Below, in pieces: positions 420-21,400 of a DNA stretch of 64,000 nt. Within the stretch, counting starts at the first letter, position 1. Each line of letters opens with the position of its first letter. Below the pieces are notes generated by a model. The model saw only the letters and a list, made by a program, of their open reading frames with translations. It had not been told where the DNA came from and searched no databases. The position numbers were made by a program, and so were the translations under genes. The stretch lies in assembly GCA_964016885.1 (NCBI GenBank), contig OZ024750.1:18042001-18106000 (forward strand), in the 5' to 3' direction. The stretch comes from Eledone cirrhosa. Its lineage: Eukaryota.

Positions 420-479
420 CAAATAATTTTCGAAAGTCCCGAACATTCCAGTGATTCCACAAGCGATTATCCCAAAATG
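420..479 (+). CDS. Exon, 60 nt: [20 protein letters not shown]
   Basis: Polypyrimidine tract + cacag| ... ATG|gtaatt; phase 0/0. Downstream intron is homologous to those of the other module exons. Confidence 0.8.
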
Positions 480-3400
480 GTAATTATTATCTTCTGTTCC
501 TATTGCCTTGTTAGTCTTTTACGTTTAGCTTGGAACAATGACGTTCCTACGTTATCATTTCAAGGCTCTCTTGATGATGTGACGAAAGTGGTGCATTTTT
601 ATCGCGTTTTGTATTAAGTCACAAGTGATCATGAGAATGACGCTGTAACTTATAAGATTTTCATGGTGGCAGTAGTAGTAGTAGTAGTAGTAGTAGTAGT
701 AGTAGTAGTAGTAGTGGTGGTGGTGGTGGTGGTGGTGGTGGTAGTTGTGTTTTTTCACACAGAACAAAACTATTTTTAGGGAGAGGGAGCTTTTCTGTAA
801 ATATGTGTGTGTGTCTCAATACTCTTTTACTCTATTACCCGTTCCAGCCATCATATTTATATATATGATGACTAAAATTTCTTTAGTCAAAAATACGGTG
901 AAAGCTATTCTATTTTCTAATTTCAAACCTGCTCACTGTTTCAAAACATACTTACTTGTCATATATATATATATATATATATATATATATTATAAAGCTG
1001 ACGGGCGTATGTAGTAACAAACTTTTCGCCAAACGGCTGGACCAAACAGCACCAAATTTGCACAATAGATTAAAGTAAGATTAAAGATATTTTATTGTTT
1101 ATTTAAATATTCACTTCTTTAAAATGTTCAAATGTCAACACTTCTGGTTAGCGATCTCTCTCTTTCTTAGTCTGTCTTTTTAGATAGATACATAGCTATA
1201 ACGTTGCGCCCTTATAATATCTGGCTGTATGTCTGGCTGTCTGCATTACGAAAACCATTGTGTACATTGACTTCGCTATCTGTGTGTGTGTGTGTGTATA
1301 TATGTATATATAGTGTGTGTATATATATATAGTGTATATATATATATATATATATATATATATAGTGTTAGTATCATTAGAGACAGTTTACTTTGTACAT
1401 TTTATTACAGCATTCCTTTATACGTATATATACGTATATATACGTATATATACGTATATATACGTATATATACGTATATATACATACATAAACATGTTAT
1501 TTACAGTTGTATAAAAAAGAAGTATAATTGTTTCTACTTTTGGCACAAGGCCACCAACTATCCCAGTACATTACTGGTACGTTATTATATATAATATATA
1601 TAATATGACATTCCTCTCTCTTTCTTAGTCTGTCCTTTTAGATAGATACATACCTATAATGTCGCGCCCTTATCATATCTGTCTGTATGTCTGCCTGTCT
1701 GCATTGACTTTGCTTCTAACCAACATATTTTCAACAGTAATACTATACTATATATTTTCAACAGTAATACTATACTATATATTTTCAACAGTAATACTAT
1801 ACTATATATTTTCAACAGTAATACTATACTATATATTTTCAACAGTAATACTATACTATATGTTTTCAACAGTAATATTATACTATATATTTTCAACAGT
1901 AATACTATATATTTTCAACAGTGATACTATACTATATGTTTTCATCAGTAATATTAAACTATATATTTTCAACAGTAATACTATACTATATATTTTCAAC
2001 AGTAATACTATACTATATATTTTCAACAGTAATATTATACTATATATTTTCAACAGTAATACTGTACTATACTATATATTTTCAACAGTAATACTGTACT
2101 ATACTATATATTTTCAACAGTAATACTGTACTATACTATATATTTTCAACAGTAATACTGTACTATACTATATATTTTCAACAGTAATACTGTACTATAT
2201 ATTTTCAACAGTAATACTGTACTATACTATATATTTTCAACAGTAATACTGTACTATACTATATATTTTCAACAGTAATACTGTACTATACTATATATTT
2301 TCAACAGTAATACTATACTATACTATATATTTTCAACAGTAATACTATACTATATGTATTCAACAGTCAGGCGAAGCTAGTTACGTCAGCTATATATATA
2401 TATATGTGTGGATGCCGTAGAACACGCCAATGGTAGCCGGGCGCCAGCCGGATGGGCCAGCTAGTATTGTGGATTGGCAGTATCGGTAGAGGGTCGGACG
2501 CCATGCTTTCCAGCATAGTTACGTCCCTTTACGATCTGAGTTCAAATCCCGCCGAGGTTGACTTTGCCTTTCATCCTTACGGGGTCGATAAAATAAAGTA
2601 CCAGTAATGCACTGGGTAATTGCTGGCCTTGTGCCTAAAGTAGAAACAATTATATATATATATATATATATATATATATATATATATAAGTATGTACACG
2701 TACATACATATATGTACACCGACGTACAGTAGTATGTATATATATATATACATACATGCACACATATATATATGCACGTATGGATTCACCGATATATATA
2801 CATACTACTGTACGTCGGTATACATATATGTATGTACGTGTACATACTTATATTTAAGTAACAGCCGTACTAAGAGTGGGAAATGAAATATCGTTTCATT
2901 TTTTCCGTATATATATATATATATATATATATATATATATATATATATATTGTTATACTTGGGGAGGGTCATATTGTTGTAATAATATTGCCAGAAATAA
3001 TAACAGAACACACTCACTGTTTGGTTGGTTTTCGCTTCTGTATCTTTTATATCTCCACAGTTAATTAATTTGGATCTCAATGTTTATCATTGACTGACCA
3101 ACGGTAAAGAAAAAACAGATATAAACACATATATATATAGTCTAACAAAGTTCTTTCATTGCACATCTGCAACATCATCAGTGGTACTATTATTTTCCTC
3201 CTGTTGTATTGTATGTCTACGCCATTTTTATTTTATCTGTTTATTTATTTTTTTTTTTTCTTCTCTGTATAGTGTGTGTGTATATATATATATATATAGA
3301 GAGAGAGAGAGAAAGAGAGGGATATATATATATTTATGTAATAAACAACATAAGATAATTATTTCATTTACCAGTGGTTTCTTGAAAGCAAACAAAACTT

Positions 3401-18400: not shown

Positions 18401-21400
18401 CTTTTCATACTGTCATATTAGAATTTTTCATATAGTTTCAAACAGTAACATTCCAATAAATATATGAGCCAGAGAGAGAGGGGAGCTAGGAAGAGAAATA
18501 AATAAAGAGGGAGAGGTTTGGATTGAGATTGATAGATATACTGAAAAATAGATTGATAGATAGATTTCTTTATTAGCCACAAGGGCGCACCAAGAAAAGG
18601 GGACAATACAAAGACATGCCGGGGATTTTACATACAGTCGTGTAAAAAATATAAAAACAAACAATTTCAACAATCGAAATGCCCAATAGGAGGGAGGCGC
18701 CACAAATGGGTTGTTTAATACCCCGTAGATAGAACAATCCCCAACTTCAGGAGCGTGTTGTGCAAGTGCTCCTTTCTTCCTTTTGCTCTCTTCCTCAACC
18801 TACAGGCTTATAAACAGAGAAGGTCCAATCACTCGGGCCATTTTCGCTTCATTCACCCACCTTTCAGTAAATTTACTGGGGTGCAGTGCCTCTCTCTCCA
18901 CTCTGATTCTCCTTCTAAAGTGATACTTAAAGAAGGGAATCAATTGTTGTCTGGAGAGAAAGGCATCTGTCCTCAGTCCTCTCAATCTCGTCCACCATAT
19001 AACTTCTTTCACCATAGCCACTGTACAGAGGAAAACCGCCTCTCTTTCGTTTTTGAAAGAAGCTGGCGGTTTGATCCTTACTATGGACTCGGCAGTCAAC
19101 TGGATTTGTCCCATACGTGACAGCAGTTGTTCTGCATAGTTCCACAGGTAGATTGATAGATAGAAAGAGAGAGACAGATAGATAGATAGTTAAATACATG
19201 TTTTATATACAACCAGTTTATTAAATTCAGAAATTCCGACCATTATGCTTTAAAGAAATGTAAATGGTGTGAGTTTCAAATAAATAGATAAATAAATAAA
19301 TAAATATATATATATATATATATATATATATAAACAAATAGTAAAAGTAAAAAGGAAAAAATACAGTAGAAAATGCTGGAGGGATTTTTTCAGTATAATA
19401 TCAAAACATTTATTTATAAAGTGGGTATTTCCGCACTTAATCGTGGTACCAGTTTTAGCATTATATGCTTTTTCAACAGTGGAAGTGCAAAGTACAGTTA
19501 AGTTGCATATTTATACGAATAATAATAAAATGGAGAAGAAAAATTATTAGTTTTAACATACATATTAAGAGAGGAAAGTTTGTGTTTCTGTCTGAGGCTA
19601 TCCTTTGTTCTCTGCTAGTTGACCAACAGAGGTGGTAGTAGTTTTAAATTTTTGGTTCTGACTTATATATACGTATATATGTACATATATATATACATAT
19701 ATATGTATGTATATGTATAGTTAAATGAATCAAACAAAACGAAGGAAGCAATTTTTACATTTATATTAGGTTCATGCTGGGTGGGAGTGGAGGAGATTTC
19801 GATATTTCAGACAGAAGTCCTTCTTCAGAAAAGTTTAGATAAGGAGGGAACAGATACACGAAAGCATAGTTAGAGAAGGTTGGGGAAGGAAATTAAATTA
19901 AAATATACATACATACATACATACATACATACATATATACATATTTTTCATCTTAATGTATATGTTTTTATATTATATCACAGAAAAGAAGTGCCCGAGG
20001 TACTAGAATTCCTGTTGAACCTCTCACCAACACTGGCATGGTAATTATCAACATCTTTTGGTATTGCCTTATTAGTCTTTTTTTTACGTTTAGTTTGGAA
20101 CAATAACATTTTTGAGTCAATTCTTATTCCAAGCCGTCCTTGGTCTCAACTTCTTAATGAAATGATGGCAATGAAATGATGTTACCGTGTTTGGTTGTAG
20201 ATAGCAATGGATTGCAAGAATTTTGGATTTAAAATTACTTAATAATGTACTCTTGGTTACTTTCATAGATTGATATATAAGTCCTGATTATTGTATTGAA
20301 TTTGGATATTTTTTATAATTTTGATATTATTTATTTTGAGAACAATACCTTAACATCAGTATGAATGGCCAGTTACAGCCAGTTTGAACTGAAAGAGGTG
20401 AAAGAATTCTGGACGGATATGGCCGGTTTAAATGCTAAAGAGTTAAGTAATGATCTAAATATCAGCTTACTAATGAGAAAATTAGTTATTTTATTAAATT
20501 CATCCAAACGTTGAGGTTATTTTCAAAATTAATTGAAACACCCAAGCAGATTATTTCATTATAAGCATATCTGTCATTGTATGTAAAAGGAGAGTAAGAT
20601 ATGCTGGCCACTGCCATCGTGCCACCTATCAGGCTGTGTCCCCATTAGTGCTTTGGAAACCACAAGCAGTCACTAATAATGGGGGGGGGGGGGGCAAGCT
20701 CCCCTATCCTGATGTCATCTCAAGAGATTCGGGTATTGAAATCCAGGACTTGACAACGACAATGAATGACAAACCCACGTGGAGATCAATTGTTGAGTCG
20801 ATTTCGGCTGAGGCCGCTGGATGATGATAAGTTCTGTAATAAAAGGGGTGAAACACTTGTTTTTGTTGTTGTACTATGTTAATACAATCACTGATTTTTT
20901 TTGTTCATAATTCTATTTTATAGAGAACTGGTATTGAAAGTGCCAAACAATTCCTGTCAGTAACAGGCATGGTAATTATTGTGGATATATTCATTTGGTT
21001 TTAACAAACTGAGAAGAAAACCTACACACACATACAGTAGAAAATTTAATACAAATATAACATCTTTCTACCAACATATTATACTTTTCCTTTATACATA
21101 TGAATACTTCTACCAATGCAAGAAGTCAATAATTATTTTTTAGACTAGTAGGAAATGCTAAACATCTTAATTTCAACCTTTTTATATATTCTACTACTAC
21201 TCTATAAGACAAGGAAGTCATGTTTATATAAAAACATAACAAAGTATACAGTAGATGCATTTAATAAAACATTGCCTAAATATCAGATGTAGTCAATTAT
21301 ATGATATCCCCCCTCCATACACAAGCACACATGTATATCATGACTCATACCCTGTTCACTTTCCTGACATTTGTACATTATTCTATGTACCTTTGATGAG

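Follow-up and report, generated by a model that had tools for sequence, protein, structure and literature searches.

Is a 1.4-kb tandem repeat in the genome of the octopod Eledone cirrhosa a satellite, or part of a protein-coding gene? The repeat lies in a 64-kb stretch of a 3.0-Gb genome (contig OZ024750.1, positions 18,042,001-18,106,000; hereafter the window), where a first-pass annotation had proposed a hidden gene built from duplicated micro-exons. Positions given here are those of the window. Another 220 kb upstream of it was read, and positions there are negative (contig position minus 18042000). Features lie on the plus strand unless stated otherwise. We find that the locus is a real, single-copy gene with many exons, the outcome of repeated duplication of one symmetric exon along with its flanks. 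Its product is probably a protein with predicted coiled-coil ends and, between them, a spacer that is likely disordered and comes from ∼67 phase-0 exons duplicated in tandem. These exons would be spliced one after another, some being skipped in frame now and then, and the length of the spacer could be tuned by copy number and splicing.

The first-pass annotation listed 15 spliceable micro-exons of phase 0/0 with lengths divisible by three, and a scan for acceptor-donor pairs recovered all 15, every one of them with AG and GT at its borders and an open frame 0. Old copies are located at 420-479 (60 nucleotides (nt), phase 0/0), 4419-4475 and 5820-5876 (57 nt each), and 18352-18387 (36 nt), and intermediate 57-nt copies at 16424-16480 and 19984-20040. 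Six 57-nt exons, starting at 8255, 9656, 11052, 12442, 13849 and 15253, are found inside a young tandem block (8032-16265; period ∼1.4 kb, 95-96% identity), and another, at 7913-7969, stands directly 5' of it. The paralogy of a 48-nt exon at 20924-20971 is weak, the value for its downstream flank (0.45) being equal to background. The proposed age gradient is borne out, as identity to the exon at 12442 falls from 0.89-0.96 in the array to 0.74-0.79 in the intermediate and 0.46-0.61 in the old copies.

Some details of the list had to be revised. The array reported for 7913-15253 is indeed an exon array, but its period covers 8032-16265; the exon at 7913, 342 nt before that at 8255, lies outside the period and shares a common older duplicated block with the exon at 19984. 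The copy at 17575-17646 (72 nt) is doubtful because, despite a strong acceptor, its family donor is gone, with a donor score of 3.8 where the other scored window copies reach 14.9-28.6. An AG microsatellite occupies its exon end, and a weak GT past the AG repeat makes the 72 nt. This copy is probably decaying. A sixteenth copy, at 6498-6560 (63 nt), had been missed; it is a sister of the copy at 420 and is splice-dead, with AT instead of GT at the donor. The basic half-module KRxxRGAR is present in all seven array exons, but the acidic half, given as EDxTDAE, is variable (QALTDVE at 11052).

The young exon has nine DNA matches genome-wide, all within the window. The head-to-tail junction of the block and several exon variants were detected in short-read DNA contigs of three out of three runs from one sample, which argues against an assembly artefact, albeit from a sample that may be the one used for the assembly. 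The three runs cover introns continuously and behave as one sample's DNA, and are therefore uninformative on expression.

Splice profiles were trained on the intronic positions of eight window exons and then applied upstream. The strict threshold returned 29 exons, 28 of them with a length divisible by three (p=9e-13, for copies that are not independent); the remaining one has a second donor 7 nt earlier, giving 54 nt. Frame 0 is open in all 29, frame 1 in 21, and frame 2 in one. With the loose threshold, 34 of 37 exons are divisible by three and 34 of 37 are open in frame 0. Control scans produced no strict and one loose candidate on the minus strand, and none and seven, respectively, in a stretch further upstream. 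Of the 61 distinct exon sequences, none has a stop in frame 0, whereas 21 open ones would be expected from shuffles. A neutral simulation with terminal branches derived from the flanks, on 47 copies (leaving out the frameshifted copy and that at 17575), predicted ∼10 copies with a stop and ∼20 with a frameshift; none of either was observed. Intron indels, in contrast, are almost never divisible by three: 0 of 16 in the core of array A (an 11-copy 57-nt exon array at -92227 to -78818, with a period of ∼1.33 kb and different flanks of its own), 0 of 4 in array B (the nine window copies of KRxxRG type), and 1 of 8 in an 11-copy alignment. Across 3.0 Gb, the pattern TTATTTCACAG-N42-60-GTAATTAT occurs 14 times, with 12 of these occurrences in this gene, and its reversed control occurs nine times. 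The statistics of frame, length and strand, together with the in-frame link to exons with protein orthologs (see below), leave next to no probability for a non-coding satellite with chance splice-like signals, even though the young block resembles a 1.4-kb tandem repeat and contains pieces of high-copy dispersed repeats. Splice, frame and linkage evidence thus favor the first-pass view of the 'satellite' as an exon array.

The listed exons turned out to be only the 3' end of the array. The whole gene measures ∼155 kb and extends ∼116 kb upstream of the window; 53 of its ∼69 middle exons, again symmetric, are located at -101182 to -310, and an intron enters the window at 1-419. The gene model comprises 83 exons, all GT-AG, in one open frame of 1,943 amino acids (aa), and the product, earlier put at ∼500 aa, would accordingly measure ∼1,940 aa or more. 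Seven unique exons encode a coiled-coil-like N-terminal end (-115694 to -103743; 195 aa), followed by 67 middle exons; the C-terminal end (216 aa) comes from nine exons between 25267 and 36746. Each of the two ends is single-copy in the genome. A length of 57 nt is found in 38 of 69 middle exons and one of 45 nt in 12, and introns range from 285 to 5,780 nt; the upstream exons also include a triplet, a 42-45-nt series, and an expanded 1,140-nt exon encoding a Gly-Pro-Ala repeat (-41055 to -39916). Four small phase-0 exons (23931-23966, 25267-25338, 25623-25652, and 27148-27171) would lead in frame to conserved C-terminal exons at 29338-29433, 30567-30661, 31873-31950, 33354-33441, 34848-34898 and 36618-36746, identified by tblastn and blastp with an Octopus bimaculoides ortholog. 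The stop codon TAA is located in the last of these (36732-36734), and a probable exon of the 3' untranslated region at 38716-39020 contains AATAAA at 38966 and 39001. The open frame of the model and the ortholog alignment agree with the earlier proposal that downstream unique exons join in frame to a coiled-coil-type region. Left out of the model were the copies at -19112 (44 nt) and 17575, four splice-dead copies, a remnant at -54656, and a candidate at -94595.

A protein search revealed orthologs in octopods. The exon at 33352-33441 (30 aa), compared with 1.84 billion representatives, gave two matches, both octopod: GAB1604873.1 of Argonauta hians and XP_052834497.1 of O. bimaculoides, whose cluster also holds isoforms X2 and X3 and an older 571-aa model. 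The C-terminal end is 48% identical to the O. bimaculoides protein over 169 aa and 42% identical to the Argonauta protein over 128 aa, and both share an orthologous C-terminal region with the present gene; in tblastn, the O. bimaculoides protein matches four C-terminal exons here. Ahead of the same C-terminal end, it carries at least nine modules of 17-20 aa in series, five of them alike. These modules, too, are serial and hydrophilic, and several have TDM/TEM ends like many exons here, but their sequences differ, and the young burst of O. bimaculoides is a Pro/Thr-rich 20-mer. Likeness to its modules is slight, with three out of nine at or below 2% of shuffles. The modules presumably correspond to exons, and the isoforms presumably have read support. 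RefSeq isoform X1 contains five similar modules in series, and isoforms X3 and X2 are without the first and the second 20-aa module, respectively, which lends indirect support to the proposed exon skipping without frameshift, but in the ortholog's predicted isoforms and not in this species. As judged from sequence, only the middle is lineage-specific, and the earlier claim of a lineage-specific protein does not hold for the protein as a whole, with its conserved C-terminal end and an N-terminal end that weakly matches DUF4709 (see below).

The public O. bimaculoides models (XP_052834497.1/498.1/499.1, XP_014790746.1) are short (385-571 aa), are without the N-terminal end, and carry the misleading automatic names SRRM1, unc-89 and HDGF-related. 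Units of array A (-91731 to -79498) contain a degraded coding fragment with ten matches (36-42%) to the first 75 aa of XP_014790746. The fragment looks like what we take to be a Penelope-type GIY-YIG piece, and the N-terminus of that model is therefore probably an annotation artefact. The ESM Atlas model of the ortholog has a mean predicted local distance difference test (pLDDT) value of 0.45; the Atlas gave no usable match for the exon and nothing informative for the ortholog's C-terminal end. A PDB sequence search gave eight weak matches (E 0.34-0.5) to T-cell receptor chains on a low-complexity part, and these were rejected.

Birth, divergence and death of copies can be followed along the locus. 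From -77809 to 19984, most copies have visibly homologous flanks, which reach ∼50 nt to the 5' side and ∼70 nt to the 3' side of the exon. Among 16 representative old copies, the excess of identity over shuffles is 0.082 and 0.087 in the two flanks and 0.041 in the exons, and the flank excess drops to 0.009 at a distance of 150 nt. At the protein level, 16 representative 57-nt copies are on average 15% identical, and the KRxxRGAR/EDxTDAE module is no conserved motif but is confined to one young burst. In a tree of 55 units, the old copies form a star from which distinct bursts emerge, and 10 of 52 inner branches are well supported; the bursts are array B, a 17-row group holding the 42-45-nt series, and the triplet. 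Single-copy ends and the confinement of the cassette pattern to the locus point to local tandem duplication, and a mobile-element origin of the splice cassette was rejected on the latter ground (12 of 14 matches). Four full-length copies are splice-dead through a mutated acceptor or donor, and one of the four has an in-frame stop; at -54656 only the acceptor remains and the exon body is deleted, and the copy at -19112 is frameshifted. The copy at -41055 to -39916 has grown internally, yet it remains divisible by three and open over 380 aa. It matches Pfam Collagen with 121 bits, with a longest Gly-X-Y run of 11, and its distinct changes (3 synonymous, 4 non-synonymous; p=0.34) give no significant evidence of translation. 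Short dispersed repeats, which we take to be SINE-like (short interspersed element), are inserted ∼10-50 nt 3' of several micro-exon donors, where they end the shared flank (window ∼4510 and 5890; upstream -19112, -14410, -12580, and -10992).

The middle region is rich in Ser, Asp, Glu, Arg, Lys and Gly. It is hydrophilic, has a net charge near neutral, lies below the charge-hydropathy boundary and contains 17% order-promoting residues, and is likely a disordered spacer. The N-terminal half of the module is more basic than the C-terminal half in 45 of 67 exons, and strictly basic-then-acidic in 30 of 67. The maximal 19-aa hydropathy of the model is 0.89, and no signal peptide or membrane segment was found in the modelled part, which may not include the true start. 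Synonymous changes in array B amount to 3 of 14.0 sites and non-synonymous changes to 9 of 43.0 sites. Selection appears to maintain the reading frame and the splice signals and not the amino-acid sequence.

These observations suggest how the gene may have evolved. Each duplication would copy an exon with a strong acceptor and donor, adding a module without changing the frame, and unequal crossing-over would let young blocks grow and homogenise. Copies would then drift in sequence, staying open while spliced and decaying after splice-site loss. If selection removes stops and frameshifts and tolerates nearly any hydrophilic sequence, the spacer would act by its length and composition and not by a specific motif. 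It could form a flexible polyampholyte tether with many Ser/Thr sites, in what is most likely an intracellular coiled-coil scaffold, and the length of this tunable tether may vary between species, between isoforms and probably between alleles.

Several results weigh against this interpretation. Rates are not uniform: array B exons evolved faster than introns (12 changes against 5.2 expected, P=0.007; 2.3x, base-class corrected), and array A exons more slowly (2 changes against 8.5 expected, P=0.009). As for the RefSeq isoforms, these are model predictions, and sequences from near-identical modules are easily mis-mapped. The coiled-coil character of both ends is predicted, from sequence and from weak Pfam coiled-coil matches on the Argonauta ortholog, and the inclusion of any given copy in transcripts is likewise a prediction. 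The annotated O. bimaculoides proteins are without the N-terminal coiled-coil part, so that the case for both ends in one transcript is drawn from this genome. Inspection upstream, as the first-pass annotation had advised, did uncover the seven-exon N-terminal end, but motif, X-box and CpG scans located neither start codon nor promoter. In a Pfam scan of 12 single exons, five N-terminal and six C-terminal ones among them, DUF4709 was matched by one of the 12, below the curated cut-off, and DUF4724 (PF15852) by none of the six C-terminal exons or the two orthologs.

One alternative is a neutral ratchet, in which duplications accumulate because there is no harm in a phase-0 exon whose splice sites are strong; the exons would be spliced in, the spacer would be functionless, and selection would act only against copies that truncate the C-terminal domain. 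We regard this as unlikely, though deserving of serious consideration. It would account for equal synonymous and non-synonymous rates in array B, the low amino-acid identity among old copies, the scant module-level likeness to O. bimaculoides, and the five dead copies; it does not readily explain why array A shows stronger conservation in its exons than in its introns, why the 57-nt length is kept in 38 of 69 middle exons along with a hydrophilic composition, or why the same design is retained in another octopus species. A second alternative, quite improbable in our judgment, is diversifying selection on a hypervariable, combinatorially spliced exon library, as in sperm competition or another arms race. 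Such a library has been proposed for schistosome micro-exon genes. The accelerated divergence of array B exons would fit it, as would the changes in array A and the triplet (seven and two), all nine of which are non-synonymous, the faster divergence of exons than flanks in old copies, and ortholog isoforms that differ by single modules. In none of five sets tested, however, was there an excess of non-synonymous over synonymous changes (binomial p 0.18-1.0), nor a significant synonymous excess; non-synonymous (dN) and synonymous (dS) rates are about equal, and positive selection is unsupported. The excess in array B and the deficit in array A give no consistent sign of it either, no signal peptide or membrane segment was seen in the modelled part, and splice-signal constraint can explain the conserved flanks.

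Still more doubtful is that few copies enter each transcript, being mutually exclusive or mostly skipped, with a protein far below the model in length. According to passages of PMC9013439, exons duplicated in tandem often go with mutually exclusive choice; here, many copies share an intronic motif downstream. Yet introns of 285 nt and more imply no steric block, and nonsense-mediated decay cannot enforce exclusivity when nearly all copies are divisible by three. Since ortholog isoform X1 contains five similar modules in series, serial inclusion is favored over mutually exclusive choice. The spliced spacer between two predicted coiled-coil ends remains the reading that we prefer.

Other features were noted in and around the gene. 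Its introns hold satellites at 21636-23162 (49-bp, 31 copies) and 1725-2367 (27-bp, 22 copies), and near-perfect local inverted duplications (fold-backs) were seen by eye at ∼3335-3620, 6060-6380 and 17200-17350; similar fold-backs recur upstream of the window. An intronic palindrome at -735 resembles what we take to be the RFX X-box consensus, but is far from the gene start and probably due to chance. Just after the N-terminal coiled coil, the exon at -97363 to -97292 encodes RATQTD, which presumably fits the binding consensus of the LC8 dynein light chain and is a putative lead; LC8 genes are present in the genome. Downstream of the gene, a 48-bp satellite at 41558-44161 (52 copies) has an 867-codon stop-free frame, probably by chance because 48 is a multiple of three. 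Its Pfam matches were dismissed as artefacts of the repeat; in none of the three families did a single stretch pass. On the minus strand, 53052-58337 holds an apparently intact retrotransposon without long terminal repeats (non-LTR); it has an open frame of 489 aa and another of 1,168 aa, which contains endonuclease, reverse transcriptase and zf-RVT.

The locus has wider implications. It shows that a kilobase-scale tandem repeat in a cephalopod genome can be an array of coding exons, cut short or wrongly named by annotation. A single locus displays birth, homogenisation, divergence, internal expansion and death of ∼70 exon copies side by side, and with its conserved splice cassette and free payload it lends itself to asking whether selection on disordered linkers concerns length and composition or frame only. 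If combinatorial splicing is true, exon arrays would be a route to cephalopod protein diversity.

How does the gene compare with known systems? A search of titles and the beginnings of abstracts, with subscription papers and supplements outside its scope, found no published description of it. The N-terminal exon at -113024 matches positions 91-110 of the 110-position DUF4709 (PF15821) profile with 15.6 bits (cut-off 27; E=0.021). It is the sole family match of this exon, and was expected beforehand from an assumed likeness to human C10orf67, to which we also take DUF4709 and DUF4724 to be linked; the C-terminal end presumably resembles that of the human protein. Genome searches gave no match for DUF4709 and none for DUF4724, for which the control was also silent. 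Because DUF4724 was unmatched, the gene is termed C10orf67-like here and is not counted among the members of the family. Like C10orf67-type proteins, it has N- and C-terminal helical regions flanking a variable middle, but here the middle is a ∼1,500-aa product of micro-exons, and DUF4724 is unmatched by its hidden Markov model. C10orf67 shows a testis bias, and from this lead one may tentatively guess at a function in sperm or ciliated cells, somewhat less probable than even. For C10orf67 itself, PMC5094585 states in the passage concerned that no function could be inferred.

The comparison with ANKRD26/36 was rightly kept to an analogy, as no ankyrin repeats were matched in the five N-terminal exons scanned, upstream of which further exons may exist. 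Nor is the gene likely to follow the Dscam-type rule of one exon per cluster, given the five modules in series of the predicted ortholog isoform X1. That disordered regions can be assembled from symmetric exons duplicated in tandem is established knowledge, as set out in parts of PMC3632108, and the present gene shares phase symmetry, disorder, tandem copies and frame-safe skipping with the cases described there. It differs in scale, with ∼69 exons compared to up to ∼10 in the ameloblastin example of that source, and in having lost nearly all sequence likeness while keeping the splice cassette. The titin PEVK region, according to passages of PMC6469411, has young and old sub-regions and changes in length, and resembles the gene in its many short repetitive exons, its young homogeneous and old diverged parts, and its exon gain, loss and splicing. 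Here, however, no repeat type is conserved, the composition is not that of PEVK, and no Pfam match to Ig, Fn3 or PPAK was found in the exons or the orthologs; the likeness is one of gene design only, and elasticity is hypothetical.

Schistosome micro-exon genes (MEGs) use small symmetric exons for isoform pools, as described in parts of PMC4350168. Most coding exons are likewise small and symmetric here (67 of the 83 in the model), exons of 33-72 nt contribute 1,152 of 1,943 aa and the expanded exon another 380, and skipping would yield a pool of similar proteins. MEG products have signal peptides, and MEGs are reported in those parts only from flatworms, whereas the closest proteins to this one are octopod and its exons, mostly 45-57 nt and paralogous, lie between conserved coiled-coil-type ends. 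That octopods have evolved MEG-like diversification inside ordinary conserved genes, with a splice cassette and a free, fast payload amplified to dozens, turned over species by species and combined by splicing into variants of cells or individuals, here in a C10orf67-like scaffold, strikes us as a rather improbable extension. The gene belongs neither to the titin family nor to the MEGs; it is an extreme case of a known process, the titin PEVK-like tandem duplication of symmetric exons for disordered linkers, and not a new kind of system.

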